Both the position numbers and the translations under genes were made by a program. A DNA stretch of 64,000 bases. Origin: Candidatus Collierbacteria bacterium UBA2277 (GTDB lineage Bacteria > Patescibacteriota > Microgenomatia > UBA1400 > MFAQ01). This document shows, piece by piece, positions 8,401-62,313 of this stretch. Location: positions 355,844 to 419,843 of the forward strand of contig DDWV01000001.1 in assembly GCA_002347045.1 (NCBI GenBank), given 5' to 3'. The stretch's first letter is position 1; every line of letters begins with the position of its first letter. The notes under the pieces were generated by a model. It was not told the origin of the DNA, made no database searches, and saw nothing but the letters and a program-made list of their open reading frames with translations.

Positions 8401-8599
8401 CTGGGGTAGTTTCCGGGTTTTGGTCGGGTGTGACTTCGGACGTGGTTTCCTGAGTTGGAGATTGCTCCACAATAACAGACTCAGAGGCAATATCTTCGGC
8501 ATAAACAGGCAAAGCTAGGGTAAGGGGAACAAAGGATTGAAGGGCTAGGCTAAAACAAGTAACTAAGGAAACTAATCTTCTTAGTTTTAGGAGTTTCAT
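5489..8599 (-). CDS. large LPXTG-anchored cell-surface protein (sortase substrate)
   Basis: 1036 aa. Signal peptide. Acidic Thr/Pro/Ser/Glu-rich linker. Long Cys- and Asn/Thr-rich body. C-terminal LPATG followed by a hydrophobic stretch and KSSNKK tail. Confidence 0.8.
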   Translation of the reverse strand: MKLLKLRRLVSLVTCFSLALQSFVPLTLALPVYAEDIASESVIVEQSPTQETTSEVTPDQNPETTPEPTIVPETTPETSPESTPAETNDDPSQSDEQQPSSIDSTSSEPETSPTMSLSEQYTVVAQLGQSTISEVSPTLTTDKPDYFPTDTVYITGINFLPNTTYTLRITSLDNPVFIYNPTVTSDENGNISFSFTLDGNYRPNYTIEATDTNGSIVASYDFTDAATGTLYPDGQGFYNQWNGDESDVDENGTPRCGESDGNDNIASNHNGNRESVKINLSSIPNNSTVTSVRIYVTDRASGSIGGTYKTFVRVGSTNTDASYNLATTSFSGCTARDQIIDIPDFVKKNDTNLEIGVLKVGNTNVRIGTIRVVVSYTEIQHVEVRVCHASGASGNYQNLTVDDDSVVGATGHGGHSNDIIPPFSYYGGYYPGLNWDTQGQAIWENNCVVPAVSYTVDTYSSNTYSTPKDDFITGQTVYGKGTRSTAANMRLRYIDSNGSVAKTCNYTNSSSVTCDYSLPSNAPLGTWKIQVGRCDNNCSNSNNWVYFGYAEDTFTVSKPTGSIKVCKMIIDGERNIVNGSEMGSSTFTIDWNKGLADTVFTSGFTPNTKLLASSESDDAYCITYSGLAIDNYTYSQEVISGSTGWQTALYNDQYTEIVNSLNDFYTYGADTNSNGEINLALDAGPNRTLVILNQYVLGSIHGFKWSDINGDGMRQTCDQSLERVVEGDYVCTPEPLLSDWTINLYKLTESDEGTTKELFDTKVTDSGDKHFGWYWFEGLLPGQYEVCEELKSGWAQTFPNPACHQVNLPDQNSSRFIISKNAVVGPEYNFGNKQVDARLLISRSNNATSPLSPGSSVEHTITIKVLDNNVRNLKLTDLLPNGFSFSGSYSVMKGSAPVTLASDPEYHSPGVWNLGDYEKDDTITIKYTASITSDINPGIYSDLAWAVADDAYDQGLSFLALGENSEYVNENNVGTDVEVIKDQTNGGTYDVEKKVEGEVLGASTSLPATGASPAWSMLALVCLVYGIRFIKSSNKK

Positions 8600-8733
8600 T
8601 GATTTTATTTAACAGTTTTACTGATCTAATATTTAGACCGGTTTCACTATTAGCTCCCTTATATCCAAAGTGACCATGTAAGGATATAGATCAATGCTCT
8701 CTAGGACGTATTGTACAGCTGGCCACAAGAATG

Positions 8734-9499: not shown

Positions 9500-9840
9500 A
9501 AATTTAATTTTACAATCAAGATGCTTGTAGTGATGATCCCGAGTGCGTCGATACCGACGTCTCTCAGGCGACCGGTTCTCCCCGGTACCAATAACTGATG
9601 AATTTCATCGGTGAAAGCGTAAATCAATGAAAATATAATTGCTTTTGTGGGATTTTTTTCTCCTATGGCTCTATACCAAAGGATAAAAAGGATAGAGTAC
9701 TCTAAAAAATGGGCCGTTTTTTTGAAAATGAAGTCTACAACATCGATATCGTTTGAAGGTAGCTCGGGAATTGATGAGACAACATATATCAGAACCATCC
9801 AAAGAACGACAGGAAGGAAACGGCTAATTTTTTGAGGCAT
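9451..9840 (-). CDS. VanZ-like family membrane protein
   Basis: 129 aa. KKTAHFLEYSILFILWY VanZ signature. 3-4 TM helices. The ORF overlaps tsaE by 49 nt, so the true start may be downstream. Confidence 0.55.
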   Translation of the reverse strand: MPQKISRFLPVVLWMVLIYVVSSIPELPSNDIDVVDFIFKKTAHFLEYSILFILWYRAIGEKNPTKAIIFSLIYAFTDEIHQLLVPGRTGRLRDVGIDALGIITTSILIVKLNLWKPLLSPLHSKKPGK

Positions 9841-9850
9841 CTTTGGTATT

Positions 9851-10711
9851 TTAATCTTTTCTGTGACGAAAATACAGTAGAGAGCCAGATAAGGTGGCTA
9901 TAAAAAGGCCTAAAAAGAAAATGTTTTTGGAGTTTGATAATCGTGGAGTCTTTGATGGAGTGGCGATATCGGCTTCCTCGAGATTTACTTCAAAATCATA
10001 AGTATCGGCTGAGTCACTGGCTGAGAGTACGCTTGATTGAGTTGACTGCTTATCCATGGTAGTCATTGAGGAAGATTTTGTGGCTATGGGCGTGGGAGTC
10101 TTTTTGAGAGTTGGAGTTGGTGTAGGAGTGGGGGTTATATTTGGAGTTTGGGTTACTAGTGCTGGAGTTGGAGTTGGTGTAGGAGTGGGGGTTATATTTG
10201 GAGTTTGGGTTACTGAGATCTCTTGAGTTGGGGATAGTGTCTGAGCTACTGTTGGTGTTGGTTCGGAAAGAATGATGTTGAGCATGTTTGATTCTCCAGC
10301 ATAAGATGTTGACTCTCCTGTAAAACGTTTGAGCCTTACTGTGTACTCGCCGGGGCCTTTGTAATCTGAGTCTTCCGGGTCAGAGTTGAATATTATTTGA
10401 GTAACTACGTCATTGTTTAACTTGATAAAGTTTTCAGAAATATATTCTTTTTCTGGTGACGATATATAGCTGAACCATTCCCCTTTTGAGCTCCATGTTT
10501 TTCCAAAGTATCTTGTAACTTCAGGTGCCGTGAGTGCTACTTGGACGAAACATGCCGATGAGGATGACACACCAGAAACCACTGCATCCAGGGAGTAGTA
10601 ACTCTCGTGTTGGGTAATATTGGAAATTTGAAGCGAAATTGCGGCGAGTATTTCCTGAGGCAACAAAAAGAAATAAAGGCAGGTTGTAAGTATTAGTGAA
10701 AGATTTTTCAC
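9851..10711 (-). CDS. secreted protein with Pro/Thr tandem repeats and C-terminal TM anchor
   Basis: 286 aa. Signal peptide. Two tandem 19-aa repeats VTQTPNITPTPTPTPTP(A)L. C-terminal hydrophobic segment plus RHRKD. Confidence 0.55.
   Translation of the reverse strand: MKNLSLILTTCLYFFLLPQEILAAISLQISNITQHESYYSLDAVVSGVSSSSACFVQVALTAPEVTRYFGKTWSSKGEWFSYISSPEKEYISENFIKLNNDVVTQIIFNSDPEDSDYKGPGEYTVRLKRFTGESTSYAGESNMLNIILSEPTPTVAQTLSPTQEISVTQTPNITPTPTPTPTPALVTQTPNITPTPTPTPTLKKTPTPIATKSSSMTTMDKQSTQSSVLSASDSADTYDFEVNLEEADIATPSKTPRLSNSKNIFFLGLFIATLSGSLLYFRHRKD
10108..10221. repeat. tandem direct repeat, 57-bp period x2, inside the 9851..10711 CDS
   Basis: ttggagttggtgtaggagtgggggttatatttggagtttgggttact occurs at 10111-10157 and again at 10168-10214. 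It encodes the PT-rich repeats. Confidence 0.8.
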
Positions 10712-26970: not shown

Positions 26971-28237
26971 GTCGAATCTCCGTTTTTCCCATTAGGGGAA
27001 CCAACACTTCTGGAATTTTGATGGAACCATCAGCTTGCTGGTAGTTTTCGAGTATGGCAACTAGCCAGCGAGGAGAGTTACTGGCAGTATTATTTAACAT
27101 ATGAACGAATTTAATTTCGTTTTTTGAGTCACGATATCGAATGTTGGCTCTTCTGGACTGGAAATCCAACATAATGGAGTCTGAAGCAAGCTCGCCGTAG
27201 GAGTTTCTCCCAGGCATCCAAGCTTCTAAATCGTATTTCTTGGCTTGAGGTTCTCCCATGTCGCCAGTACACATCTTGAGGACTCTGTATGGCAGACCAA
27301 GATCTTGGGCTATTTCTTCGGTGAGAGCCATCATCTCTTCGTGAATTTTTTTGGATTCTTCTAAATCATTCTTGCAGATAACAACCTGCTCTGTTTTTAC
27401 AAATTCGTGAACACGATAAACACCTTTAGTGTCTTTGCCGTAACTACCTGCTTCTTTGCGGAAACACGGAGAAAAACCAATCATGCGAAGGGGAAGATCT
27501 TTTTCTAAAAACACTTCATCTTGGTACATGGATACCAGGGGAACTTCGGCTGTTCCAGCCAGGAAAGTTTCTTCCTGACCTTCTTCTGTTTCAAATTTGT
27601 ATGTTTCTTTTTCTCCCCAAGGGAAGTGTCCGGTATTTGTAAAAGACCTTCTCTTTAGAATCACAGGTGGAGTAACTGGGGTGTAACCTTTGGCAATGAA
27701 TTTTTGGAGTGTGTACTGCATGAGAGCAAACTGCAACATCACAGCTTCGTTTTTCAAAAAATATCCTCTAAAACCAGCTACTTTAGAACCTCGCTCTATG
27801 TCTATAAGGTCCAAGGACTCTCCAAGCTCTATATGTGACTTGGGAGTGAAGTCTAGCTTGGGAATTTCTCCCCAGGTACGAACAACCTCATTGGCCGAGT
27901 CGTCTTTTCCTACGGGGACATCGTCTAGTGGAATTCCAGGAACCTGAAGCATAAGAGAGTCATACTCCATCTCAACTTGGCGAAGTTGTGGTTCCAGGTC
28001 TTGAAGCTTTTGCTTTAGTTCACTTGACTTTGCAATTAGTTCTGGGGTACGGGACGTTTTTAGTTCTTCGTTTAGTTTGTTTCTTTCGGATCTGATTGTT
28101 TCAATCTGACCGATAAGATCTCGACGCTTGGCGTCTGAGAGAAGAATGGAGTCAACAACATCAGGGTTTAAATTTTTGTTTGTGATCCCCTTTTTGACTT
28201 TGTCGGGGTTTTCACGAATGTAGGCAATATCAAGCAT
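26963..28237 (-). CDS. serS: seryl-tRNA synthetase
   Basis: 424 aa. N-terminal coiled-coil arm. Class II motifs (FRKEAGS..., GELASDS...). Confidence 0.95.
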   Translation of the reverse strand: MLDIAYIRENPDKVKKGITNKNLNPDVVDSILLSDAKRRDLIGQIETIRSERNKLNEELKTSRTPELIAKSSELKQKLQDLEPQLRQVEMEYDSLMLQVPGIPLDDVPVGKDDSANEVVRTWGEIPKLDFTPKSHIELGESLDLIDIERGSKVAGFRGYFLKNEAVMLQFALMQYTLQKFIAKGYTPVTPPVILKRRSFTNTGHFPWGEKETYKFETEEGQEETFLAGTAEVPLVSMYQDEVFLEKDLPLRMIGFSPCFRKEAGSYGKDTKGVYRVHEFVKTEQVVICKNDLEESKKIHEEMMALTEEIAQDLGLPYRVLKMCTGDMGEPQAKKYDLEAWMPGRNSYGELASDSIMLDFQSRRANIRYRDSKNEIKFVHMLNNTASNSPRWLVAILENYQQADGSIKIPEVLVPLMGKTEIRRA

Positions 28238-29588: not shown

Positions 29589-29662
29589 GGTCCCGTCGTC
29601 TAGTGGTCTAGGACATTTGGTTCTCATCCAAAAGATCGCGGGTTCGACTCCCGCCGGGATCA
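29589..29662 (+). tRNA. tRNA-Glu (anticodon CTC)
   Basis: Manually folded cloverleaf. Acceptor GGTCCCG/CGGGATC with one G-U pair. D-arm GTC-TAGTGGTCTA-GGAC. Anticodon stem TTTGG/CCAAA with loop TTCTCAT (U33, C34-U35-C36, A37). T-arm GCGGG-TTCGACT-CCCGC. Discriminator A. No encoded CCA. Confidence 0.85.
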
Positions 29663-31441
29663 CAAGTCCGAGTTTATGACCGAGAACTCTCGATCAATAA
29701 AGTCGGATAAAATTGTTTCGGGCAGGTTCAAATAGATGTCAATCGTATTTGGTATCATTTGTCCTTCCTTTTTCTTGCCTGCTATTGAGTCTTCCTTAGT
29801 CTTTGGCCTTGAATGAACAACTACTTGATAAACAAGGTCGTGTATGAGGTCGTACAAAGCCTTCTGATCTGCCACCCTACCTTCTATCACCTCTTTATAT
29901 CTTTCTCTGTACTGATTAAGTCCGAGTTCGTAATCTTCTGATAAATATGATTGACTGATGCTGTAGTCAATTTCCTTTATTTTTTCTTGATACTCGCTGG
30001 CCTTTAGATTAAGTTCGGCTAGTTTCTCTTTTAGGGTATCTGTATCTATTATCATTAGCACAGCATGTTGATCTTGATAACCTTTTTTACGACCTGGTAT
30101 GCCATTGAGGAGGTCTATATAGTGTTGTCGTCTTACTTCCAGATCAGCCAGTACCTCACTTTCAAGTTTCTTTGATCTAAGATTTCTGGAATACTCGTAA
30201 ACATGTCTAGGGTCTTTTAGAAGTTCTTTTACGAACTCAACAACATAGTTTTCAAGAGCTTCGGCTGGAATGGGTATGGTGGGACAGGTCTCACTATTTT
30301 TTGTGTCATTCTTACGATTACATTGATAATAGTAGGAAAACTTGTGGGGTGAGTTTGTGAGTTTCTTCTTTACGCCTGTCCATGTTGAATACTTTTCATT
30401 TTCGTTTACATCTCGTTTGCAATGGTCGCATTTGAGAAGTGAAGACAATAGATAGAGATGGTCGTTTTCTTCTTTCTTTTTATTTAGATTTTTTCTATCC
30501 GCTATTTGCTTTACGTATGTTTGAGAGATTTCAAATATGTGGAGAGGAATAATTGGTTTATGCCTGTAGGGTGAAAGTTTCCAATCTTGCTTGGGTAACA
30601 GCTTTCCATAATGTGATTTGTTGTAGTAGTAGAAACCTGTGTAAATCTCATCGGAGAGAATATCTCTGATCTGACCTGACATCCAAAAGTTGTTAGGATT
30701 GAGTTTGTGAACTTCACCTTTTCGTTTGCCATACTTTACAGCAGATACCTCTGGGCTTAGTATGTTATCTTCTGCTAGTTTGTTAGCGATTATTTGATAG
30801 CTCAATCTATCAAGAACGAACGTCTTGTAAATTCTTTTGACTATTTCTGCCTCTGCTTTCAATATGGCGATTTTGCCTTCTTTGTCTTTGATGTAGCCAT
30901 AAGGCGGATGAGTTCCCATGAACTTACCTTGTGATACAGCCGCCTCCTTACCCTTTGAAGTTCTTTCTTTAATTGTTTCAAGTTCAAGCTCCGCAATGAC
31001 TCCTAATATGCCCAACATGGCTCTTCCAAAAGGTGATGAAGTGTCAATACTTTCGGTAGCAGAAATGAACTCTAGTTTGTGCTTTTTGAATAGGTCGAGA
31101 ACTTCGAGTAAGATTTTTAGCTTACGAGCAAACCTGTCAATTCTGTAAACAGCGATAACATCGAAGGGCAAACCATCTTCTGAGTTGCTTATGTCCTCAA
31201 TGATTCTTGAAAAGGCAGGTCTCTCATTTAGGTTCACCACTCCGCTGACCCCATCGTCTGAGTAAATGTAGTTTTTGTCTGCGAGAACCATAGCTGGACG
31301 ACCATCTTTGAGCAATCCCCTGGACTTGATCGCCGCCTCGATCGTGCTTCTTTGAGCGTCTAAGCCATACTTTTCAACCTGTTCATCAGTTGAGACTCTG
31401 AGGTAGATTGCTACCCTGAGCTGTTTCTCGTCATTATCCAT
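29660..31441 (-). mobile_element. large serine recombinase / integrase CDS (resolvase-like catalytic domain, recombinase domain, zinc ribbon); its stop codon overlaps the 3' end of tRNA-Glu
   Basis: 593 aa. N-terminus VAIYLRVSTDEQ with the catalytic Ser. Large C-terminal extension with a Cys cluster (CDHC...C). TGA stop at 29660-29662 overlaps the last 3 nt of the tRNA. Confidence 0.9.
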
Positions 31442-31651
31442 TTATCTATATTTCTCTAATAAGTTCTCGGTAATCAATCTCTATTTAATCATAATAATTG
31501 TTTTCAGGCTAATTGGTAGAGAATGGGCAGGAACACTACCGAGTGACTGAGGAGAGTACGTGACAAGCCTGCCTGGCTGTTTTTGTGTGTTTTGATGAGT
31601 CATAAAATGCCAAAACCGTGCCTATTTGTTCCTATGTATTAGACCTATAAC

Positions 31652-31680
31652 TTGACAAATGTTGTTTTGTGTGGTATTAT
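31652..31680 (+). promoter_or_regulatory. consensus sigma70-type promoter: TTGACA (31652-31657), 17-nt spacer, TATTAT (31675-31680)
   Basis: Read directly from the sequence. Lies about 55 nt upstream of the AGGAGG SD (31729-31734) and the ATG at 31740. Confidence 0.6.
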
Positions 31681-31739
31681 ATGACAGTTCTTTGAATCAA
31701 CTAATCCGTCCAATTCAGCTCAAACCAAAGGAGGCTATC

Positions 31740-32099
31740 ATGCCTAAGAACGATAAAATGATCGGTTTGTCTCTCTCTCTCTGCGTTTCCCAGATTGCTC
31801 GTGGGGAAGTGAAAGAAGAAGATGTCGAGAAGATCATCGCCGCCACCAATGCCCCCGACCTCGCCACTTTCGAAGAAGTTATCGCCAGCTACTGCGAAAC
31901 CTACTGGCACGACTACCCCGAAAAGGCTCGCGAGATCGCGATGCGTTTCTGGAACAATGGCAATGTTGATCAGCCTCGCACCCGCGGCGAAGATTGCCAC
32001 TATATCGGCGCAGGCAAATGGATGGATCACGAACAAAACACCTTCCACTATGTGGACGGCAAGCGGCAGTATTCAGGCGAGAAGTTACGCGCCTGGTAA
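31740..32099 (+). CDS. hypothetical protein encoded by a compositionally alien (GC-rich) gene
   Basis: I prefer the internal start MPKNDKMIGLS... (120 aa), which has a perfect AGGAGG SD 6 nt upstream; the ORF track begins at 31659. Local GC is ~53% against ~30-37% in the flanks (counted on two 60-nt lines). No family recognised. Confidence 0.5.
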   Translation: MPKNDKMIGLSLSLCVSQIARGEVKEEDVEKIIAATNAPDLATFEEVIASYCETYWHDYPEKAREIAMRFWNNGNVDQPRTRGEDCHYIGAGKWMDHEQNTFHYVDGKRQYSGEKLRAW

Positions 32100-32103
32100 C
32101 CAT

Positions 32104-32149
32104 CCCCCCAAGTAAGGAGAAATCTCCTCGCAAGGGGGGATTTTCTTTT
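32104..32149 (+). terminator. intrinsic terminator: CCCCCC...GGGGGG outer stem with inner GGAGA/TCTCC hairpin, then ATTTTCTTTT
   Basis: Starts 5 nt after the TAA of the GC-rich gene. The T-tract is on the + strand only. Confidence 0.6.
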
Positions 32150-32154
32150 GTCTG

Positions 32155-32586
32155 CTATTGATTGCTATTATTTGTTTTTATCCTTAGCTCACCTTCGAGT
32201 TTTTCTATGTGCTGTTTGAGATCAAGGTTGCCTGTGTTCATCATTTTGGAGTTTCTCTTTTGGGCTTTGTCAATTAAGGCTAGAGAAATAGCTTTGATGG
32301 CGAGATTGATGTACATGGCGATTACACTGGCCGTTTTATTGCTTGTATTATTTGCCCTAACATCATTTATCACCTGTTCAATTAAGTAAACTATATCTTC
32401 GTTGTTTCTGAGAATAATAGGCTCTTGGTCTGCATAACTTCTTTTAAGACTTTTGCCTCCGTTCATTACTGCCTCTAGGTGTTTATCTTTGTGCTTCTCG
32501 GAATGAGAGAAGCAAAACTCGTCATCTTTGACGGCGTAAGCATTACACTGACTGCCGTCTGGTTTGATAAAGTTACATGTTTTCAT
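32155..32586 (-). CDS. hypothetical protein with N-terminal Cys-rich (zinc-ribbon-like) segment
   Basis: 143 aa. C4, C14 and C25 followed by SH, then a charged helical region. Island cargo. Confidence 0.45.
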   Translation of the reverse strand: MKTCNFIKPDGSQCNAYAVKDDEFCFSHSEKHKDKHLEAVMNGGKSLKRSYADQEPIILRNNEDIVYLIEQVINDVRANNTSNKTASVIAMYINLAIKAISLALIDKAQKRNSKMMNTGNLDLKQHIEKLEGELRIKTNNSNQ

Positions 32587-33249: not shown

Positions 33250-33840
33250 GTGAATTTTCGCTCTCGTCAGGATACATGCTATCATTTTATGGTGAGACCC
33301 GATAATGACAACCCAAATTTGAATTTCGAAATAATTCAACTTCCAGTATCTGACTGGAGGAAATATAAATCTCTTCGGCTTGAAGCTTTGAAAACCGACC
33401 AACAAGCTTTTGCAAAGACATATGATGATGAAGCTACATATCCTGATGAAAAATGGATAGAAAGAATTGAACGAACTAAAAGTGGAGATGCCTGGATGTA
33501 CTTTGCCAAAGATACGGATACTGATGAGCTTGTAGGGATGATTGGAGGATATAGAGATGAAGAGAACCGAGCAAAGCACTCAGCCCAAATCTGGGGAGTA
33601 TATGTTCACCCTTCTCGTAGAGGAAAGGGATTATCTAGTTTATTAATGAGTAGAATTTTGACTGAGTTTGAGAAAAATGAAGATATTGCAAAAGCTGTAT
33701 TGGAAGTAAATGTAGATCAGCCTTCGGCAATGAAACTTTATGAAAAGTTTGGCTTTTCTGTAATAAATAGATTTACCTGCACACTCGGGGATGGAAAAAA
33801 GCATGAAGTGTGTATTATGGAAAAAGAGTTGAAACGATAA
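33250..33840 (+). CDS. GNAT family N-acetyltransferase
   Basis: 196 aa. Acetyl-CoA pocket motif RRGKGLSSLLMSRIL. Typical GNAT length. The true start may be an internal Met. Confidence 0.75.
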   Translation: MNFRSRQDTCYHFMVRPDNDNPNLNFEIIQLPVSDWRKYKSLRLEALKTDQQAFAKTYDDEATYPDEKWIERIERTKSGDAWMYFAKDTDTDELVGMIGGYRDEENRAKHSAQIWGVYVHPSRRGKGLSSLLMSRILTEFEKNEDIAKAVLEVNVDQPSAMKLYEKFGFSVINRFTCTLGDGKKHEVCIMEKELKR

Positions 33841-33848
33841 TTCTGTTT

Positions 33849-34379
33849 TTATCGGTGATTGGACAAATATTGCGAAAGTTGTCTGATTGGAGATTCAGTA
33901 TTATTTAGATCTTTATATATTACCCCACTTGCATTTGCTTCTTTGAATTTCTTGTTTGCTCTCATATCTGTAGAAAATCCAAATACTTTTCCCGGAAATT
34001 CTTTTTGATTAAGAATCTTTACTAAATCTGACCCCTTAATACCATTTGCCAAATTGTAATCAATTAAAACAGCATCAGGATTTGTTTTAATTAATTCATC
34101 AATTATTTCTTCTATTGTCTGACCTTGATGATAAATGAATGTAGCTTTGCCGTTGGTTTCGACGAGTAATCTTGGAACAAATGTTCCAAAAACAATCTCT
34201 TGATCATCTATCATCGTAATTTTTTTGTCTCTTAGATTTTCTGTACCAACAAGGGGAATTGGTAGAGTGTCTATAAAAGCATATTCTCCCTGAATTGTTT
34301 TTAAAATTGATTTGGCTTCTTTAAATAAATCTTTCTGCTCATCATTTTGGGGGTTTTCAATTATTTCTGAATAGTCCAT
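33849..34379 (-). CDS. CheY-like receiver-domain protein (orphan, N-terminal ~50-aa extension)
   Basis: 176 aa. KKITMIDDQ...(acidic pocket), AVLIDYNLANG (phospho-acceptor Asp position), FSTD (S/T), YKD (Lys). This pattern is consistent with a receiver fold. Confidence 0.45.
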   Translation of the reverse strand: MDYSEIIENPQNDEQKDLFKEAKSILKTIQGEYAFIDTLPIPLVGTENLRDKKITMIDDQEIVFGTFVPRLLVETNGKATFIYHQGQTIEEIIDELIKTNPDAVLIDYNLANGIKGSDLVKILNQKEFPGKVFGFSTDMRANKKFKEANASGVIYKDLNNTESPIRQLSQYLSNHR

Positions 34380-34551
34380 GTTTTTATCATACAGTATTCA
34401 TAATATTTGTTGAACAATTTTCTGCACTGAGATTAATTCACAAACTATTTGGTTCAGGTTTTGTATACTTGGGGTCACCTCAAAGAAGTGGGTTTGGTCA
34501 TCTCACAGATTGATTGAGAAAAATATTTTGTATTTCATTTGGAGATAAATC

Positions 34552-35298
34552 TTATGTTTTTTTATTGAGCCTAATTTCCAAATCTTCTAAAAATCTTGTA
34601 TATAGTTTAGTTTCGGAAACTATATTCCTTGCCGTGAAATCAGGATACAATCTCCATTGATCAAAGTAAGAAGAAAAGTCAAAGAGCGTAGGTTTGTCTC
34701 CCTCAATAATGACGTTGTTTAACTTCCAAAACCTTTTTCCATCAATAATCTTTTCTCGAAGATAAAGATCTGGTGCCCAACCTTCTTGTTTAATTAATCT
34801 GATAACTCCGAAGGCTAATTCAGCAAACTCCCTTTTTGTTTTTGACGAAAGGGTTTCGGTATCAATTAAATCAGCTTCTTTCCCCATCAATCTTGATTGT
34901 CTGATTGTATTTATTAACCCTTTGTCGGTATAGATTCTCTCAAAAGTACTATCAAGAATAAACTTATCAAGATATTCTTTACATAAATTGTACGAAGATA
35001 TTGTCTTCTCTAAATAATTCTCAGTATTGACCTCTTTGAATGCGCCTGAAGGAACTTTAATTATTTCATCTTCGTTAGGTAATGAATATGCTGCCCATTC
35101 CCAACCAGAACCAATTAGCTTTGAACCAGAAATATATGAAAGGCTTTGGGGAGGAGAGGGTCTTTTGTATGCAATACTCTTGAATTGTTTTTCCAATCTA
35201 TTTATTTCAGATGAAAGTTCTGCTTCAGAAGCTCCTCTTGTCAAAAGATCTTCCATAAGCCAATGTTTATTATTTGAAGCCCTTATTGTACGGTTCAT
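34552..35298 (-). CDS. hypothetical protein with protein-kinase-like motifs (RIO/Kdo-kinase/APH-like small kinase fold?)
   Basis: 248 aa. Gly-rich loop-like IGSGWEWAAYSL followed by IIKVP (VAIK-like). DFG-like KPTLFDFSSY. No canonical HRD. Overlaps the HAD gene by 4 nt, which suggests an operon. Confidence 0.4.
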   Translation of the reverse strand: MNRTIRASNNKHWLMEDLLTRGASEAELSSEINRLEKQFKSIAYKRPSPPQSLSYISGSKLIGSGWEWAAYSLPNEDEIIKVPSGAFKEVNTENYLEKTISSYNLCKEYLDKFILDSTFERIYTDKGLINTIRQSRLMGKEADLIDTETLSSKTKREFAELAFGVIRLIKQEGWAPDLYLREKIIDGKRFWKLNNVIIEGDKPTLFDFSSYFDQWRLYPDFTARNIVSETKLYTRFLEDLEIRLNKKT

Positions 35299-35903
35299 AT
35301 CCTTACTGAAACTCCCCTTAATTGCTCTAAGTATATTTCAAATCCTTGAAACAGAAAGGTTGTGATTCCTACAGCTTTTGCACCTGCAAGATTTTCAGAG
35401 TTATCATCGGCAAAAATAATTGATTTAGGATCAACCCCTGACTTATTGACAAGAGCAGTAAAAATCTTCTCGCTTGGTTTACTTTCACCAACTTGAAAGG
35501 AGAAAATTGAAAAATCAAAATCTTTTAAGAAACCAAACTTTTCTTGAAGTCCATTCACTCTTGCCGGAAAATTGTTGGAACAAATAGCAGTTTTATATCC
35601 CACCTCACGAAGTTTTCTAACTGTTGAAACGACATTTTCGTCGACTTCGTATCCATCGATTAGTGTCTTCACTAATTCATGCCATGATGAATCAAGTTTC
35701 CATTCTGAGATAGCCCAAGTCCAAAATTCTTCATCTGTCATTTTTCCATTCTTGTAGTCTTGGTTCATCTGGGGAGACTTCAAGAACACTCTCTTGGCTT
35801 CGTTTTCACTAACACCAAAATTTTCTATGGATTTTATAAAATTCGCTTTTCCGTTGGGAAAATATACTCCGTCAAGGTCGAAAGTGATTACTTTTATGTC
35901 CAT
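35295..35903 (-). CDS. HAD-superfamily hydrolase (subfamily IA-like)
   Basis: 202 aa. Motif I ITFDLDGVYF. Conserved S/T and K motifs. Motif IV FADDNSENL. Confidence 0.8.
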   Translation of the reverse strand: MDIKVITFDLDGVYFPNGKANFIKSIENFGVSENEAKRVFLKSPQMNQDYKNGKMTDEEFWTWAISEWKLDSSWHELVKTLIDGYEVDENVVSTVRKLREVGYKTAICSNNFPARVNGLQEKFGFLKDFDFSIFSFQVGESKPSEKIFTALVNKSGVDPKSIIFADDNSENLAGAKAVGITTFLFQGFEIYLEQLRGVSVRI

Positions 35904-36146
35904 TCTTAATATTTCTCTTTTCTTAAATACTTATATAATTGAAGTATAACAATGTTGTAAGTTTGAAAACAAACAAGACTCGATTATGATCCTCGTTTTA
36001 TAACTGGTTCCTTGGTATTTCACAGCCTTACAGTCTTTTTGTCTGATTGCAACGATAGTTTGTTTTCCAACTATTTAACCGTACGAAATATTGGTTTTAC
36101 CCCTTGTCACAAATTGTTCCGTTTCAGCATACCCAGGATCACATTT

Positions 36147-43919: not shown

Positions 43920-44291
43920 TTAGCGATTCATACCGCGACCGTTTCCTTGTTTGTTTCCAGAACCATTTTTTAGTCCTAGTCCAAGCTCGGCACGGATAGC
44001 TTTTGCTTCATCTACTTTTCCTTGATCTGCAAGCTTGTGGGCTTCTGCAAACTTGGAGAAGTTTTCAGCGTTGACTACTTTGGTTACTCTTCCATGGCCG
44101 TTTGAGAGAGCCTTCCAAGCATTGTAGTCGTTGGTCTCGAAAGCTTTTTGCATAGCTTCGTGACGTTCGGCTGTGTAGTTTGGACCCTGAACTCCAGGAT
44201 CACCTTTATATGCGAAAACTGCTTGAGGAGCGAGTACTGCTCCTACAAGAGCGAAACTAGATAAGCCTAGTAGCATTGACTTTTTGGTCAT
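43920..44291 (-). CDS. hypothetical secreted protein
   Basis: 123 aa. Signal peptide ..ALVGAVLAPQAVFA. Confidence 0.45.
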   Translation of the reverse strand: MTKKSMLLGLSSFALVGAVLAPQAVFAYKGDPGVQGPNYTAERHEAMQKAFETNDYNAWKALSNGHGRVTKVVNAENFSKFAEAHKLADQGKVDEAKAIRAELGLGLKNGSGNKQGNGRGMNR

Positions 44292-44428
44292 ATGTTTTTG
44301 TTTTTTAATTACTAACTACCAGTAATACTTAAATGGGATGGATTTTATTTCAGGCATCTATGTAAAAGACGATATGCTTTACTAAGTGTTATAGTTTCCG
44401 ATACATTATGTTGTATATAATCTAGGCC

Positions 44429-45481
44429 ATGCTGAGTATTCTATTTTCAATATTATATGTATTCGTTTTTACAGTTTTGATAAGTGATTCTTTTAGAGCC
44501 TTTGACTCAAGCATTAAATTTATTGGGGTTGAGTCAAATTTTTTGGCTGTTGTTTTCCTGACACTTAATATTGTCCTAGCTTTCATGAATGTTTATCAAC
44601 TACCCAAGAAGGTGCTAAGTATCAGTAAAGGAATCTTTTGTATCAGCTCATTCTTATCAGTAATCTTCATACTCCTTGGTTATATTATCGACAGAAATAT
44701 TATTTTTAGACTAACTAATATTCAGGTGGAGAACTTTATAACCCTACCGTTGTTCACTGGTGGAATTTTGTATATCAATTATGCTCCAAGACTAACCAAG
44801 GAAATTATTTGGAAGAAATTAATCTTTTTTATTCCACCCCTATTTTTGTTTACCCTCTTTTTCGTAGATATTTTTGACCCAGAACTTTTTAAAAATATCA
44901 CTTCTGAAGATCGTCTATTTGAAAATGCTCAGTTTCTTTTTTTCTTTTTATCTTCTGCTGTGGCTTTTTTGACTGCGTTATTTTTTTTAAGAAAGAGGTC
45001 TGCCTTACAAGCAGTATTGTTTTTAGGCCTGGCAGTAGGATTATTTTTTATTTCTGGAGAGGAAATATCGTGGGGACAGAGAATAATTGGGTTTGAGACT
45101 CCCTACTATTTTGAACAGTATAATTTGCAAAAAGAATCAACCTTCCACAACATAGGCACTTTCCATAGATATACGCAAATATTTTATATGGTAGTAGGTT
45201 TGTATGGTGCCCTAAGTAGGGTTATATTAACAAAGTTTTTTCCTCGACTTGCCAAACTTTTTTGTTTTATTACTCCACCAACTTTGTTTTTCTTTTACTT
45301 CTTTGCCGTATTCCTATTTTACTTTTTGAACCAGTATCTAACTTTTTACTATGAAATACTTACAACAGCGAGAATGGGTATGGGTAAATGGCAAGAAGTG
45401 GCGGAGTTATATGTGGCTACAGGATTTTTATTGTTCACTCTTTCTGCTTACAAGGAAGCTCGGCAAGACAAGAAATACTAG
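44429..45481 (+). CDS. hypothetical polytopic membrane protein
   Basis: 350 aa, about 10 TM. Conserved-looking GEEISWGQRI loop. Confidence 0.5.
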   Translation: MLSILFSILYVFVFTVLISDSFRAFDSSIKFIGVESNFLAVVFLTLNIVLAFMNVYQLPKKVLSISKGIFCISSFLSVIFILLGYIIDRNIIFRLTNIQVENFITLPLFTGGILYINYAPRLTKEIIWKKLIFFIPPLFLFTLFFVDIFDPELFKNITSEDRLFENAQFLFFFLSSAVAFLTALFFLRKRSALQAVLFLGLAVGLFFISGEEISWGQRIIGFETPYYFEQYNLQKESTFHNIGTFHRYTQIFYMVVGLYGALSRVILTKFFPRLAKLFCFITPPTLFFFYFFAVFLFYFLNQYLTFYYEILTTARMGMGKWQEVAELYVATGFLLFTLSAYKEARQDKKY

Positions 45482-45515
45482 AAAATGTTGCATTGGTTTT
45501 TGTTGTGGTAGCGTA

Positions 45516-47192
45516 TTATTTTTGTATATCTTTTGCCTTGAATTTAATGTTACACATCTTGAAGTATATTTCCTCTAAAAAAAGATTAAGTTTGTACGCA
45601 TCAACAGTAAAAATGTATGCTGCTTTCCAAGATGGCTTTTTGAAGTCATTATTAATAAATGAAACCAATTCTCTAACAGAGTTTACCCCCAAAACTGAAC
45701 TGGCTTTTTGAATCATTCCTACGTAATCACTTGAGATTTCAGTGTCTTGTAACAGAAATGATGTATTTTCACACAACTCATCAATATTCATTGCAAAAAA
45801 ATCATCGACTCTTTGCAAGTGAGGCTCCATGAAAACTTGGCGATCAGTAGCTTCTTTATTATTATATTCGCTAATCAAAGATGACAAGACTCGGATTTTG
45901 GCTTCAACATCTTCTTCAAGATCCTTAATAAATTCGTTTTCAGATTCACCAATTGGTATGTTTGGTAACTCAACCTTGGCTCCGTCTAAATGATTTTTTA
46001 GCATAACTGGCTCACCTAGATATGATTCCATCAATATTTGCATTTCATTATTGATTCTCGCCTCAAAGATATCCGTGGTTTCGTTGTTATTTCTAATATA
46101 ACTATCAAAATCAAATCGCCTAAATTCACTTTCATCCCCTTCAAAAAAGTCATATCTATTAACAGCGGGGAGTCCTTTTTTGTGAGCAAATAAAAATCTA
46201 TCTGGATTGTCAATTGCGTTAACTGTACCAGTCCTCAACTCCTTAATTTGTGTATTTATCCCAAGTCCATACACCCCCTTGCTACGATCAATAACTTTGC
46301 TTATTTTTGATGATAAATCAACCTCTTCTCCAATATTGATATCTTTGTTAAAACCACCAGCTTCTGTGTAAAGCCAAGTTCTATATGCTCCGAGCCCAAC
46401 GATACGATCATTAAATACTTGATTCATCCTATCTTCCATGTGAGCAGCAAAGGCTAGAGAAGGGAATCTTTCGTTTATAAATCTAGGCAGCTCTGCCACA
46501 CTCTTGCATTGAACAATATCTGTATTACTTAAGGCATTAATCGTATTATCGACATATCTTCGGCTCCTACCTCTTGCATCCACCCCACCTGTTTTCATAA
46601 TGTGATTTGCTTTGACTGACTGGTCAGCCTCCCTTTCTGTGTTTCTTTTTACAATTAAGTCACCCAAAATTTTGTAAATTAAACCCATTTTTCTCTGAAT
46701 CTTCCCTTTTTCTGACCCAATTTTTTTTATTGGATACTCGATTTTTGACTTTACCAAATGAACATTAATTTCTTCGTGTTCATCAATAAATTCTATGATA
46801 CCTTTTTCGGTATCGGCGTCAAGCTCACTATTTTGATCGCAGTTTAAAAAAATTAAATACTCGACCTCATCTTGATCAATTGGATTACCAACAAGATCTT
46901 CCTGGCCAACAATCGTATTCTCAAGTAACTTTTTTACTTCATACCCTTCTTTATAGGCAGGAACTCCAATTGATAGCTTGCATTCTGGTTTCATTTTTTC
47001 ACCAATCTGCATATCAAGAGAATCGACTATTTTTTCTACACTCTTGTTAATTAGTTTTTCTTTGGCAATGTACATCTTCTGTACAAGTGATCTGTAGTGA
47101 TCAGCCATGCTAACCCTCTCAATATTTCCTTCTTTTCTTTCTGTAAAACCGTTTACAGGCTGACTGATCTGGTCATCTTCATTTCCTTCCAT
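45516..47192 (-). CDS. hypothetical protein (possible GT-A-like N-terminal region)
   Basis: 558 aa. LSIGVPAYKEG... and LDAD are faintly GT2-like. Otherwise unrecognised. Confidence 0.4.
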   Translation of the reverse strand: MEGNEDDQISQPVNGFTERKEGNIERVSMADHYRSLVQKMYIAKEKLINKSVEKIVDSLDMQIGEKMKPECKLSIGVPAYKEGYEVKKLLENTIVGQEDLVGNPIDQDEVEYLIFLNCDQNSELDADTEKGIIEFIDEHEEINVHLVKSKIEYPIKKIGSEKGKIQRKMGLIYKILGDLIVKRNTEREADQSVKANHIMKTGGVDARGRSRRYVDNTINALSNTDIVQCKSVAELPRFINERFPSLAFAAHMEDRMNQVFNDRIVGLGAYRTWLYTEAGGFNKDINIGEEVDLSSKISKVIDRSKGVYGLGINTQIKELRTGTVNAIDNPDRFLFAHKKGLPAVNRYDFFEGDESEFRRFDFDSYIRNNNETTDIFEARINNEMQILMESYLGEPVMLKNHLDGAKVELPNIPIGESENEFIKDLEEDVEAKIRVLSSLISEYNNKEATDRQVFMEPHLQRVDDFFAMNIDELCENTSFLLQDTEISSDYVGMIQKASSVLGVNSVRELVSFINNDFKKPSWKAAYIFTVDAYKLNLFLEEIYFKMCNIKFKAKDIQK

Positions 47193-47257
47193 GCCTTATT
47201 ACTTTAGCAAAAAATGCGTCAAAATATAAGATATCTCGGAATATTGTATGATTAGTT

Positions 47258-47575
47258 ATGAAATGGAGCTTAAGACTGTTGTATCTATATTTATTTTCTT
47301 TTGTGGGTTTACTCATCGTGGTGATTGGAAGTATTCAGATGGTGAACTTGGGACTGAAGACTTTTGTGTTTAGGGATGTGGATAAATATGAAGTGTATAT
47401 AGATAAAATGGTCCCGGAGTTAGAAAGAGAGTCTGTTGAAGAAATAGAAAAGAGACAAGAGGTGGAAATAAAAAGACAAAGAGAGCGTGAGTTCGTTAAT
47501 TCACTATCAATGATAGTGGTGGGTTTACCTCTATATCTATATCACTGGAAAACGATTCAAAAAACAAAAGCGTAG
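47258..47575 (+). CDS. small hypothetical membrane protein
   Basis: 105 aa. TM helices at both ends with a charged EKRQEVEIKRQRER segment between. Confidence 0.4.
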   Translation: MKWSLRLLYLYLFSFVGLLIVVIGSIQMVNLGLKTFVFRDVDKYEVYIDKMVPELERESVEEIEKRQEVEIKRQREREFVNSLSMIVVGLPLYLYHWKTIQKTKA

Positions 47576-47586
47576 AATATTGATGC

Positions 47587-48549
47587 TTGGCAGTTAAAGC
47601 AAAAAATATGGCAGTTGAAATTGAAAATAAAGATTTTTTAGAAAGATATAGAGAGCAGTTACGTGAAGAAAAATGTTCAAGGTCTTTTGGGGAAGATGAT
47701 TCGGGTGTTTACTGGCAATGCCCTTTGGGTGACTATAGTAAACCAATTTTCTTTTCTGATAATGGTGTGCCAACTCTCACCGGCATTGATAAAATAATTA
47801 GGCGCGAAAATGAACACTCACAAGAGTTGATTGGAGTGGAAAAAAGCATTGGGCATATGGTAAGGGAGCTGTTGCAAAAATCAAAGAAGAGACCTATTTT
47901 GGTGATGGATTTTGGGGGTGGAGTTGGACTGAGTTGGAGTCGCTTGGCTGTGAAGTTTGAAGAGGAGGTTCGTGCCAACGAAGTATATTTTGTGGTTACA
48001 AATATCGAAAAAAATTTTTTAGTAGGGGCTGCGATTGAAAATTGCTATAACAAAGATAGCCAAAAAGATGGTCGGGAAGTAGTAAAGTATGCACACGAAC
48101 AAGGACTTGTAATGCACATAGAGGCTGAGCTTTCAGGTGCCGATAAAGATGATATTAATTCATTGAGACAGTATCGAGTTGAGATTGATCACAAATCTGT
48201 ACCTTTTATTGGAAACGTAGACATCATTCATACAAGAATGTCTTTGGTACACTCCGTGATTCCTGAGATTCACTATCCTAGACTATTTGAACTTTTTTCA
48301 AAGAATGGAGTGTTTCTAGATACTTCTTTTTCGGCAAAAACCCCTGCAACACCAAGTACTTCAGTTGATGATGGCGATTTAATTGACTCTAAGATAAAGC
48401 AAGCAAAATACAATGCATATCAGTATGTAATTAAGAATTATGACATGCAACCAGTAGAGTTTGTAGAATCTGGAGAAAAGGCGGGCGAAAAAATGTTTGC
48501 GACAGTACTAAGGAAGAAAGGTTCGGATTATCCACAAATCTGGGCTTAG
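47587..48549 (+). CDS. hypothetical protein, possible SAM-methyltransferase-like fold
   Basis: 320 aa. ILVMDFGGGVGLSW resembles MTase motif I. Weak. Confidence 0.35.
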   Translation: MAVKAKNMAVEIENKDFLERYREQLREEKCSRSFGEDDSGVYWQCPLGDYSKPIFFSDNGVPTLTGIDKIIRRENEHSQELIGVEKSIGHMVRELLQKSKKRPILVMDFGGGVGLSWSRLAVKFEEEVRANEVYFVVTNIEKNFLVGAAIENCYNKDSQKDGREVVKYAHEQGLVMHIEAELSGADKDDINSLRQYRVEIDHKSVPFIGNVDIIHTRMSLVHSVIPEIHYPRLFELFSKNGVFLDTSFSAKTPATPSTSVDDGDLIDSKIKQAKYNAYQYVIKNYDMQPVEFVESGEKAGEKMFATVLRKKGSDYPQIWA

Positions 48550-48605
48550 AGCTAAAGTAGGAGTCAAGTATAATGATAGGGTTGGTTTTAATTTTTAATT
48601 TTTGA

Positions 48606-49358
48606 ATGAATAATATCGCAACGCCACTCTTATTATCCTTTTTGGCTGGAATTAGTACAGTAATAGGAAGTTTGTTTTTGTTTTCTTTTAAGAAGTTCAA
48701 TGACAAACATCTCAGCTTCTTTTTGGGAGTGTCTGCTGGTTCAATGGTTTACCTTTCTTTTATGGAACTAATGCCAGAGGCCATTTCAAACATTGGTTTT
48801 GCTTACTCAAATATCACTTTCTTTTTGGGTATTTTGTTTATGTCTCTTTTTGATATTTTTGTACCTCATCACATCATGAGTTTTTGTAATAGAAAAGGGA
48901 TAAAGTTCGACAAGCTAATGGTTTCTGGAATAATGGTGGCTATTGCAATTACAATACATAATTTCCCTGAAGGGATTGCCGTTTTTATGAGCTCTCTTGG
49001 CGACATAAGACTAGGATTACTAATCGCCTTTGCAACTGCAATTCACAATATTCCTGAAGGTCTAGCAGTAGCTGCTCCGATTTATTACTCATCAAAAAGT
49101 AAGCTGAAGGCTGTTGGTTTTTCTTTTCTAGCGGGCATTGCAGAACCCATTGGCGCAATTCTTGCTTATTTAATCCTAAAACCATATTTGTCCGTCGAGT
49201 TTTTGAACTACATATTTGCCTTTGTTGCTGGAGTAATGGTCTATATAAGTTTTGACGAACTATTGCCTTCTTGTTTTGAGTATAAATGTGGACACACTGC
49301 AATAATAGGAATTATTTCTGGGATGATGCTCATGGCTTTGAGCCTTAGTTTTATTTAG
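48606..49358 (+). CDS. zupT: ZIP-family zinc transporter ZupT
   Basis: 250 aa, 8 TM. HNFPEGIAV and HNIPEGLAV metal-binding motifs. Confidence 0.85.
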   Translation: MNNIATPLLLSFLAGISTVIGSLFLFSFKKFNDKHLSFFLGVSAGSMVYLSFMELMPEAISNIGFAYSNITFFLGILFMSLFDIFVPHHIMSFCNRKGIKFDKLMVSGIMVAIAITIHNFPEGIAVFMSSLGDIRLGLLIAFATAIHNIPEGLAVAAPIYYSSKSKLKAVGFSFLAGIAEPIGAILAYLILKPYLSVEFLNYIFAFVAGVMVYISFDELLPSCFEYKCGHTAIIGIISGMMLMALSLSFI

Positions 49359-61221: not shown

Positions 61222-61608
61222 TCATTTTTTTATTTCATCTTGAAGATCTTTGAGAGAACTCATATGTTCTGCAAGAACTGACTTTGCTGTTTCAAAAAGC
61301 TTGTCTTTTGGCATTTCCGTAACTACGCCATAAGTTTCTGAAAATTTATCTATTGACATTAGCTCAATTGTTTCTTGGTCGTTTAACATGACTATTACGA
61401 GTATCGCAGGGTCACTCTCAACCAAAGATGATGATGATGATGAGGGGATATCAAGATTGCAGAGATCAAGCTTTATTGCGCTTGATTTGGCTATGAGGGT
61501 CTTTGCGCACCACGTTTGTGATGGATAAGTAGTGATACAAAGAACTAACCATAGCTCTGTGTCCTGATTGGGTGAGAGTCTTTTTTTTCCTTCATTGAAA
61601 AGGGCCAT
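61222..61608 (-). CDS. hypothetical protein
   Basis: 128-aa ORF followed by a clean terminator. Confidence 0.4.
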   Translation of the reverse strand: MALFNEGKKRLSPNQDTELWLVLCITTYPSQTWCAKTLIAKSSAIKLDLCNLDIPSSSSSSLVESDPAILVIVMLNDQETIELMSIDKFSETYGVVTEMPKDKLFETAKSVLAEHMSSLKDLQDEIKK

Positions 61609-61748: not shown

Positions 61749-62237
61749 ATGACATATTTCAATCGAGGAGGATTCGGAGGTGGTCAAGGAGGAAGACCAA
61801 GTTACAACAATCGTGATTCAGGAAGACAGGAAATGCACAAGGCTACCTGTGAAGAATGCGGTAAAGACTGCGAGGTTCCTTTTAGACCCAATGGCAGCAG
61901 ACCAGTATACTGTAGTTCTTGTTTTGAGGCTAGAGGTGGAGGAAGCTCTGATAGACCTCAGTCTAGAGATTATGGCCGAGATAACTCACGAAGTTTTGGA
62001 AGAGATAGCTATTCCCCAAACAGAGGTAACAGAGATGAAAGACCGGCGTCAAGACAAGTTGACTATTCTGGAGATTTTGCAGCTTTGAACAAAAGAATTG
62101 ACAAAGTAGTAGAGCTTCTGTACGTACTTAAACAACAGAACCAGGGTGATGATGTAGTAGAAGTAAAAAAAGAATCAACTAAAAAAGCACCTAAAAAAAT
62201 AGTTAAGAAGGCAAAGAAAAAGACACTAAAAGTTTAA
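61749..62237 (+). CDS. Gly/Arg-rich CxxC...CxxC zinc-ribbon protein with basic C-terminal tail
   Basis: Start placed at the internal ATG (MTYFNRGGFGGGQGG...). CEECGKDCEV..16 aa..CSSC treble-clef-like pattern. KK-rich C-terminus. Followed by a terminator. Confidence 0.5.
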   Translation: MTYFNRGGFGGGQGGRPSYNNRDSGRQEMHKATCEECGKDCEVPFRPNGSRPVYCSSCFEARGGGSSDRPQSRDYGRDNSRSFGRDSYSPNRGNRDERPASRQVDYSGDFAALNKRIDKVVELLYVLKQQNQGDDVVEVKKESTKKAPKKIVKKAKKKTLKV

Positions 62238-62258
62238 TCTATCTTTTTTACAAAAAAA

Positions 62259-62283: not shown

Positions 62284-62313
62284 TGCTTAAAATGGTAGAA
62301 TATACGGGTACAT

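Follow-up and report, generated by a model that had tools for sequence, protein, structure and literature searches.

The 64-kb window analysed here (by window we mean the whole stretch of DNA) belongs to a Collierbacteria-like bacterium of the Candidate Phyla Radiation (CPR/Patescibacteria). Our subject is one short open reading frame (ORF) on its plus strand at 31740-32099, which comprises 119 codons and a stop, together with the promoter, leader and terminator that enclose it in a 508-bp cassette (31643-32150, plus strand). An earlier reading of the DNA, made from the letters alone and referred to below as the sequence-only reading, had singled out this ORF as a segment of ~53% G+C content (GC) between poorer flanks, and both the ORF and its composition were found as described. 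The GC of the ORF was 0.528 against a window mean of 0.396, and no other locus in the 64 kb is as GC-rich over 360 nt. When GC was scanned in sliding 360-nt segments, 8 of the 6,364 segments reached 0.528, all 8 overlapped this locus, and the maximum was 0.55 in the segment starting at 31781. The immediate flanks had a GC of 0.37-0.38, adjacent genes reached up to ~0.40, and the promoter and leader of the cassette itself were host-like at 0.36.

The compositional excess was concentrated at third codon positions. GC at the three codon positions (GC1/GC2/GC3) was 0.55/0.38/0.65, compared to a GC3 of 0.351 on average (sd 0.045, maximum 0.463) in the 63 other long ORFs of the window, a deviation of z ~6.7. 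Third-position C was the chief source (0.44 versus 0.209 ± 0.053 in the other ORFs), third-position G rose mildly (0.21 versus 0.142 ± 0.039), and GAA was still preferred to GAG. The preferences for CGC (Arg), GGC (Gly), GCC (Ala) and ACC (Thr) were matched by none of the 63 other genes. This segment is a real plus-strand gene, because the ratio of nonsynonymous to synonymous substitution rates (dN/dS) in the sense frame was 0.04-0.23 against three other copies of the cassette, while an antisense ORF of 115 codons (31701-32048, minus strand) gave ~1.25 in the same comparison, with copy L001, in which the sense frame gave 0.23. The antisense frame is thus unconstrained and was rejected as the coding strand. 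The matches to a protein family and the structural model described below agree with the sense frame.

Expression signals frame the gene on both sides. Upstream lies a sigma-70-type promoter (31652-31680, plus strand) in which TTGACA (31652-57) is followed by a 17-nt spacer, a TG that extends the -10 element, and TATTAT (31675-80), with 11 of 12 consensus positions matched. A promoter scan over 6 kb returned 13 promoter-like sites where 15 were expected, which takes weight from any single-sequence match. We regard this promoter as credible because its motifs were kept across five diverged copies of the cassette: the -35 hexamer, the TG, positions T1, A2 and T6 of the -10 hexamer and the string AGGAGGC are invariant, and the spacers and leader vary. 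The Shine-Dalgarno sequence AGGAGG (31729-31734) ends 5 nt 5' of the ATG, in a leader (31681-31739, plus strand) that appeared unstructured when its fold was compared with shuffled sequences (z = 0.43); an Rfam scan of the cassette locus returned no RNA family, and so no riboswitch or structured leader. At the left edge, the element CCTATA (31644-31649, plus strand) stands 2-4 nt 5' of the -35 hexamer in all five copies, and the pattern CCTATA-N2-4-TTGAC has one site in the window, at the cassette, with 0.03 expected.

Downstream, the gene is closed by a compound intrinsic terminator (32102-32149, plus strand) made of an outer C6/G6 stem, an inner GGAGA/TCTCC stem and a T-run. The hairpin (32102-32141) with its T-run folded at -25.3 kcal/mol (z = -4.0 versus shuffles) and was also found by a terminator scan. 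It was conserved throughout the five copies, being so nearly invariant that they yielded no covariation. The promoter, the Shine-Dalgarno sequence and the strong compound hairpin of the sequence-only reading were all recovered in this way, and from these signals we infer that expression would be constitutive, insulated, efficient and strong. The same reading had placed a structured patch, GGCAGG...CCTGCC plus a T-run, at ~31487-31545. Its parts lie ~40 nt away, outside the cassette (31526-31594; GGCAGG at 31526-31531, CCTGCC at 31568-31573, the T-run at 31580-94), its fold was insignificant on either strand (z = 0.11 on plus and -0.94 on minus, versus shuffles), the terminator scan did not report it, and it was not conserved in the other cassette copies, in which homology begins only at 31643. 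We therefore discarded the patch as a structured element.

A related promoter architecture was seen in Candidatus Collierbacteria RIFOXYD1_FULL_40_9 (L011), the host of another cassette copy. There, at 8438-8451, CCTATA-N3-TTGACT...TGgTAGAAT recurs before the next gene, a 393-aa ORF without a Pfam match. CCTATA may be an upstream promoter or regulator element shared by these mobile genes.

The limits of the cassette are given by the common end points of BLASTN matches in four other contexts (five contigs). L026 and L027 match window positions 31643-32150 at 92%; together with L028, whose contig ends inside the ORF and matches from 31643, they represent one locus in three metagenomes. L011 matches 31644-32148 at 86%, L001 matches 31640-32148 at 85%, and L002 matches 31727-32153 at 69% with the promoter motifs still recognisable. 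The flanks were unrelated among the window, L001, L002, L011 and L026-28 while the cassette boundaries agreed. In L011 the cassette is accompanied by the 393-aa ORF and then by a large serine recombinase 1.3 kb away, in L001 by small ORFs and a SocA/Panacea-domain gene, in L002 by the core genes map-adk-secY, and in L027 by a HAD hydrolase gene 53 bp downstream. A large serine recombinase lies within 1.3 kb of the cassette in two of these loci, the window and L011. A promoter, a single gene and a terminator bundled in this fashion recall the moron, which is defined as an autonomous promoter-gene-terminator unit of a temperate phage (PMC3714127).

The HAD gene next to the cassette in L027 has an orthologue in the window (35295-35903), which lies 3.2 kb from the cassette and in the opposite orientation, and this pair provided a yardstick for divergence. 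Between the window and L026-27 the proportion of synonymous differences (pS) was 0.21 in the cassette gene (synonymous rate, dS, 0.25) and 0.76, or saturated, in the HAD gene. The cassette ancestor is therefore much more recent than that of this flanking gene, a signature of horizontal exchange. Since a search for close homologues among 5.8 billion proteins returned 6, we also conclude that the cassette gene is not a core gene. Taken together, the comparisons support movement of the cassette as one block among Collierbacteria-like genomes. The sequence-only reading had described a discrete single-gene unit, self-signalled and of alien composition, beside a recombinase, and this description was borne out. 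The wider interpretation offered by that reading was supported in part.

The direction of third-position change points to a GC-richer source. With four taxa compared, lineage-specific changes from G or C to A or T numbered 34, against 6 in the reverse direction (p = 8e-6), and with three taxa the counts were 37 and 7; most were C→T. Because selection at equilibrium would balance this flux, we believe that the coding sequence descends from a GC-richer ancestor and is still ameliorating. Among the copies, the one in the window lies on the shortest branch and is highest in GC3; those that have diverged further have values of 0.60, 0.59, 0.57 and 0.44. A GC-richer foreign origin of the cassette gene is supported by these patterns. 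A donor of high GC, for which the sequence-only reading had named Actinobacteria or Proteobacteria as examples, did not emerge from the analysis. The excess is dominated by third-position C, and the cassette, its AT-rich promoter included, has been passed around low-GC CPR genomes for a while, with dS values of 0.25-1.0 between copies. The host-like GC2 (0.38) and the weak excess of G3 argue against a very high-GC source and leave a minor role for codon selection.

If codon selection were the whole cause, the gene could be a native, vertically inherited and highly expressed host gene whose C-rich third positions arose from translational selection. The prominence of third-position C over G, the retention of GAA over GAG, the host-like GC2 and the AT-rich, host-like non-coding parts of the cassette would all fit, as would a promoter, Shine-Dalgarno sequence and unstructured leader that look optimised for expression. 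A gene inherited in this way would not be expected to have six close homologues in 5.8 billion proteins, five contexts with sharp common boundaries, a pS of 0.21 beside 0.76 in a flanking gene, a 34-to-6 flux where a selected equilibrium would balance, and Arg, Gly, Ala and Thr codon usage unlike that of the 63 other genes of the window. We consider this explanation very improbable and retain the GC-richer foreign origin.

Near its 5' end, the gene contains a (TC)6 tract (31770-31781, plus strand) that encodes the S-L-S-L of an invariant GLSLSLC motif. It is the sole dinucleotide repeat of five or more units in the 64 kb, in which homopolymers of nine or more are absent, and a dinucleotide repeat of at least six units arose in 6 of 200 first-order Markov simulations. 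The number of units differs between cassette copies. L026 has (TC)6 and an intact ORF, and L027 and L028, which come from other samples and are otherwise identical to it, have (TC)7, which shifts the frame to a stop after 24 codons. This 2-nt indel is the single difference between L026 and L027 across 1,380 bp. L011, a separate lineage, likewise has (TC)7 and a stop after 24 codons. The locus thus combines the two sequence hallmarks of simple sequence repeat (SSR) contingency loci, a perfect repeat inside an ORF and a frame-changing polymorphism in unit number between near-identical sequences, and we consider the (TC)n tract a candidate phase-variation switch. The polymorphism itself is directly seen in the alleles; that the switch is reversible we infer from them.

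The (TC)7 copies might instead be ordinary dead alleles or assembly errors, with no switch at all and with the repeat a by-product of C-rich codons for S-L-S-L. It speaks for this that in L001 and L002 the repeat behind the motif is interrupted (TCTCTTTCTCTC and TCTCTTTCACTC, respectively), and that reversibility is presumed from no more than five observed alleles. However, the indel is all that separates L026 from L027 in 1,380 bp, it recurs in the independent lineage L011, and (TC)7 is present in three independent assemblies; dinucleotide tracts of 12-14 nt are not a typical site of Illumina consensus error. The OFF alleles also keep strong signatures of purifying selection. For the L011 allele, dN/dS against the window copy was 0.04, and its inactivation is therefore either recent or reversible. 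We judge the dead-allele explanation unlikely and treat the tract as a candidate switch in what follows. A full-text literature search for phase variation in Patescibacteria found nothing relevant. The other short tandem repeat found in the window, (GAT)5 at 61427-61441, lies inside an ORF on the minus strand (61222-61608) and preserves its frame.

The product of the gene belongs to a large family that curated resources leave unnamed. The sequence-only reading had recognised no family, which held for the curated collections: the best Pfam-A match (E = 0.043) was below cut-off, and NCBIfam, PHROGs and PADLOC returned no match, whether searched with the protein itself or with a diverse set of relatives that included longer, possibly fused ones. 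It did not hold more widely, as a profile search of 1.84 billion cluster representatives returned 1,301 clusters at E ≤ 1e-3 (690 at E ≤ 1e-10), which sets the family at no fewer than 1,300 clusters at 50% identity. Members listed by a word-index search were all unnamed and without Pfam domains, 78 members scanned singly showed no recurring family, and a literature search on the motif strings of the family found nothing relevant. Most members have 90-120 aa and share a core of about 90 residues (residues 7-95). In an alignment of the 78 sequences, G9, S11, C15, Y51, W56 and W94 are invariant, and L12, S13, V29, I32, Q78-P79-R80 and G92 are nearly so.

An AlphaFold2 model built from this alignment had a mean predicted local distance difference test score (pLDDT) of 94.1 and a predicted template modelling score (pTM) of 0.88, with the element order beta1-alpha1-beta2-alpha2-alpha3-(beta3)-alpha4 plus a hairpin at the C-terminus that only the CPR clade and some relatives possess. 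The product is predicted to be a small cytoplasmic alpha/beta protein. Its fold had no match in the Protein Data Bank (PDB), where Foldseek gave a best E of 0.48 and a sequence-profile search gave only an insignificant match to PglZ (E = 0.55); a search of BFVD returned two uncharacterised phage proteins and no others. Two assignments were tried and rejected. A lipoprotein, suggested by the lipobox-like L-S-L-C, disagrees with the many members that begin M-I-G-L-S-L-S-F-C and with the position of the segment in beta1/alpha1 of the model (pLDDT ~98). A thioredoxin- or ArsC-like protein, considered on account of a Cys at a helix N-terminus and a conserved Pro, was unsupported by the fold searches.

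The genomic contexts of the family that we examined are mostly viral, with members located chiefly in the accessory or early regions of phages, jumbo-sized ones included, and on other mobile elements. Eight contexts are IMG/VR contigs. Further viral contexts are a phage with portal, terminase, HNH and MT-A70 genes, a 97-kb phage with ThyX, dCMP deaminase and QueC, contigs of 405 kb, 241 kb and 49 kb in which arrays of small co-oriented ORFs are accompanied by RNA ligase or RtcB nearby, and the 469-kb Sinorhizobium phage Phosso (match at 27630-27923 of PV764938.1). Non-viral contexts are an element of TraG/TrwB type in a Levybacteria genome, a metagenome-assembled genome of Bdellovibrionales and a gyrA neighbourhood. 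Family genes were markedly GC-richer than their phage or genome background in the unrelated contexts L005, L012, L018 (0.49 versus 0.34) and L030 (0.60 versus 0.45), and were not GC-richer than their surroundings in L014 and L017; frequent transfer or an intrinsic constraint may lie behind this. The Levybacteria element (L013, with a TraG/TrwB-like gene) has a feature of its own: copies of a 52-nt GC hairpin lie on both sides of the family member, followed by motifs resembling the type III hammerhead (CTGATGAG...CGAAAC), with the elements at 5879-5930, 6303-6398, 8038-8093 and 9836-9887. Rfam gave these motifs E values of 8e-5 and 1e-4 with 35 bits, short of the gathering score of 48.5, and the region could consist of ribozyme-punctuated gene units.

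The mostly phage-borne family is compatible with the proposal of the sequence-only reading that the cassette carries an anti-defence, immunity or host-interaction factor; of this proposal a role in conflict between phage or mobile element and host survives, and the molecular function can be stated only conditionally. We think a conflict role of some kind more likely than not. The product would act in exclusion or defence, or in counter-defence. It would bind or modify a small phosphate-bearing aromatic, nucleotide-like ligand or a universally conserved host target, and the candidate pocket would be formed at the ends of predicted beta-strands by G9-S11-S13-C15, T36, Y51/Y55/W56, Q78-P79-R80 and W94. 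In alpha/beta proteins, ligand-binding sites usually follow beta-strands. Since the conserved residues follow beta1, beta2 and beta3, the usual alpha/beta ligand sites, a pocket with Ser, Ser and Cys at a helix N-terminus, an Arg and four aromatics is suggested. This mechanism is tentative, and we put it on the less probable side.

As a counter-defence gene of the anti-CRISPR (Acr) or Ard type, the product would be kept on by the element against host immunity, and lytic phages would use its relatives early. That the protein is a small orphan, and that its gene lies beside an integrase under a very strong promoter of its own, would suit this function, and no known defence protein model matches the protein. 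In L017, L023 and L025 the family occurs among runs of small ORFs that share one orientation, as is typical of early regions in phages, and elsewhere it stands beside the DNA-modification genes MT-A70, QueC and dCMP deaminase. Most anti-defence proteins are narrow in distribution and evolve fast, whereas this family has an unusually wide spread and keeps Cys, Ser, Tyr, Trp and QPR positions invariant. No Aca-type regulator is adjacent, and no solved anti-defence structure resembles the model. Classically, the genes that SSRs switch on and off are those for defence and surface functions, and anti-defence genes are not among them. We find the counter-defence assignment doubtful.

The opposite assignment, a lysogenic-conversion or superinfection-exclusion (defence) gene that shields host and element and is phase-varied because it is costly, draws on the moron-like architecture with constitutive-type signals, on carriage by an integrative element, and on an ON/OFF polymorphism that resembles phase-variable restriction systems. 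Against it, PADLOC returned no match, the protein is a lone one of 119 aa for which no partner gene is conserved across loci, and the family is abundant in lytic-looking and jumbo phages, where a host-protective role is less obvious, even though phages do carry exclusion genes. An exclusion function also strikes us as rather unlikely when taken singly. Conflict in the broader sense, covering both directions, is the function that we carry forward.

The cassette sits in the end region of an integrative element. Divergent from it, a large serine recombinase of 593 aa is encoded at 29660-31441 on the minus strand, with the Pfam domains Resolvase, Recombinase and Zn_ribbon_recom and similarity to phage integrases. 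The stop codon of this gene overlaps the 3' end of a tRNA-Glu(CTC) gene (29589-29663, plus strand; ARAGORN and Rfam), the probable integration target. On the other side of the cassette, an accessory gene for a 143-aa protein (32155-32586, minus strand) is assigned to the recombinase element, as a homologue adjoins a serine recombinase in L036. Four homologues of this protein were found. The one in L036 (P0242, 8001-8417, 65% identity) is separated by a mere 48 bp, and by no cassette, from a 505-aa large serine recombinase downstream of it, the 3' end of that recombinase gene overlaps tRNA-Trp, and genes for LexA-like, Dam-methylase and helix-turn-helix (HTH) proteins lie upstream. In the window, the 143-aa gene and the recombinase are 713 bp apart, with the 508-bp cassette between them in opposite orientation. 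As the module is contiguous in L036 and split in the window, we read the cassette as a probable insert between adjacent genes. A comparison of this sort is how morons are classically recognised (PMC3714127). Elements that target tRNA genes by a serine recombinase and end in this module of 143-aa gene and recombinase do appear, from these comparisons, to exist in related bacteria.

Near its N-terminus, the 143-aa protein is rich in Cys and His (motif C4, C14, C25, H28); it matched no family, and tBLASTn of it against GenBank phages gave no match. Its gene is conserved directly upstream of large serine recombinases from different subfamilies, and a recombination directionality factor or element regulator is a candidate function. 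A second large serine recombinase in the window (62234-63910, minus strand, 558 aa, Resolvase/Recombinase/Zn-ribbon) has a 3' end that overlaps tRNA-Gln(CTG) (62314-62386, plus strand), and its homologues stand 1.3 kb from the cassette in L011 and beside the homologue of the 143-aa protein in L036. The geometry shared at tRNA-Glu, tRNA-Gln and tRNA-Trp suggests a family of tRNA-targeting serine-recombinase elements in CPR genomes.

The genes neighbouring the cassette encode GNAT, REC-like, HAD, ABC/MacB and HlyD proteins and a two-component system. Two blocks of low GC (33800-36000 and 44000-49000, 0.30-0.36 in a window of 0.40) hold the REC-like gene, a 248-aa ORF, the HAD hydrolase and several ORFs without a family match, and these blocks may be further foreign segments or island cargo. 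A cyclic-di-GMP-II riboswitch aptamer was found at 8627-8710 on the minus strand, scoring 54.9 bits against a gathering score of 53.5, directly upstream of a 1,036-aa ORF (5489-8599, minus strand) that has only a weak MG2-domain match. Such an aptamer is notable in a small CPR genome.

We propose that the cassette originated in a GC-richer source, would then have moved as a block among Collierbacteria-like genomes, and would have been inserted, in opposite orientation, between the recombinase and the 143-aa gene of an element that targets tRNA-Glu. It would be expressed constitutively and be insulated from the genes of the element. Slipped-strand mispairing would alter the length of the (TC)n tract, with (TC)6 ON and (TC)7 OFF, and would generate heritable on/off variation; a high cost of strong expression would explain why an off-switch is kept. 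We regard this overall account, a mobile and switchable 508-bp cassette of moron type and GC-richer origin with a proposed role in conflict, as well on the probable side. A bolder version, in which the locus is the first recognised SSR contingency locus in CPR bacteria and its product represents a superfamily of new fold (at least 1,300 phage and mobile-element lineages) whose Cys/Ser/Trp/QPR pocket intercepts a nucleotide-like immune or metabolic signal, would be attractive, and we rate its chances as low.

Several observations weigh against parts of this account. The recombinases of the window and L036, on which the comparison of the two modules relies, are only 23% identical. A search for direct repeats between 29.4 and 50 kb, as att sites or island ends, gave nothing convincing, and among the neighbours of the cassette in the island there are no capsid, portal, terminase or tail genes and no PHROG matches. 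The serine-recombinase island that carries the unit is not demonstrably a prophage, and for this reason we call the unit moron-type and not a proven phage moron. The HAD yardstick consists of one gene, which lies in a low-GC block and could be mobile too, and a GC excess that is mostly third-position C, with host-like GC2 (0.38), could likewise be produced by codon selection. The (TC)7 alleles could reflect plain loss of function at a mutational hotspot, five alleles having been seen. The strength of the promoter and the constitutive expression of the cassette are read from its signals, and the pocket from sequence conservation and the order of secondary-structure elements. No neighbour is conserved across 21 loci of the family beyond closely related phages, and the contexts give no pointer to a pathway.

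CPR bacteria have tiny genomes, and their mobile elements and phenotype variation are little known. In this setting, the comparisons point to a ready-to-express module that has passed from one related CPR genome to another with its end points unchanged and, by its substitution patterns, is still cooling from a GC-richer origin. If reversibility is confirmed, the (TC)n tract would be a contingency locus in a lineage without a described example. If the pocket reading is true, the product would represent a new kind of effector in phage-host conflict, carried between genomes on a 508-bp module already equipped for expression. The product family is among the larger unnamed families of phage accessory proteins, and its core, with Cys15, QPR and two Trp, makes a tractable target in the search for a new activity. 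The main value of the locus lies in a candidate contingency switch in a CPR bacterium and in the large orphan protein family that it brings to attention.

We compared the cassette with four known systems. Integron gene cassettes are likewise single-gene mobile units that occur in varying contexts beside a site-specific recombinase. An integron cassette was rejected here on two grounds: the unit carries a promoter of its own and ends in a Rho-independent terminator, where an integron cassette is promoterless and bears attC, and the adjacent recombinase is of the large serine type and not a tyrosine integrase of the IntI type, with no cassette array in the window. Genes of the anti-CRISPR or ArdA type resemble the cassette gene in that their products are small and lack annotated domains, that they lie on mobile elements and in phage early regions, and that they have an unusually strong autonomous promoter. 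The cassette differs from them in having no Aca or HTH regulator and no likeness in sequence or fold to solved anti-defence proteins, and its family has a much wider spread and stronger conservation than Acr families usually show.

SSR contingency loci in Haemophilus, Neisseria, Campylobacter and Mycoplasma, phase-variable restriction-modification genes among them, resemble the cassette in having an in-frame short tandem repeat whose change in unit number (here 6 versus 7) shifts the frame and truncates the product, and in that this change can be the sole difference between otherwise identical sequences. Unlike classic loci of this kind, the TC tract encodes part of the most conserved motif of the protein, and the gene, whose product is small and cytoplasmic, is carried by a mobile cassette and belongs to an uncultivated CPR lineage.

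Morons include the units first described in HK97/HK022 and lambda bor/lom. The cassette departs from them in its CPR host, in its location on a tRNA-targeting serine-recombinase island without recognisable phage structural genes, in the occurrence of the same block in five contexts, one of them beside map-adk-secY, in its internal dinucleotide-repeat switch (a candidate), and in the uncharacterised family of its product. Like a moron, it has a single accessory gene enclosed by a sigma-70-type promoter and a factor-independent terminator. It also shares with morons a G+C content clearly unlike that of its neighbours, transfer as a block and, probably, a position between genes that are adjacent in a related element.

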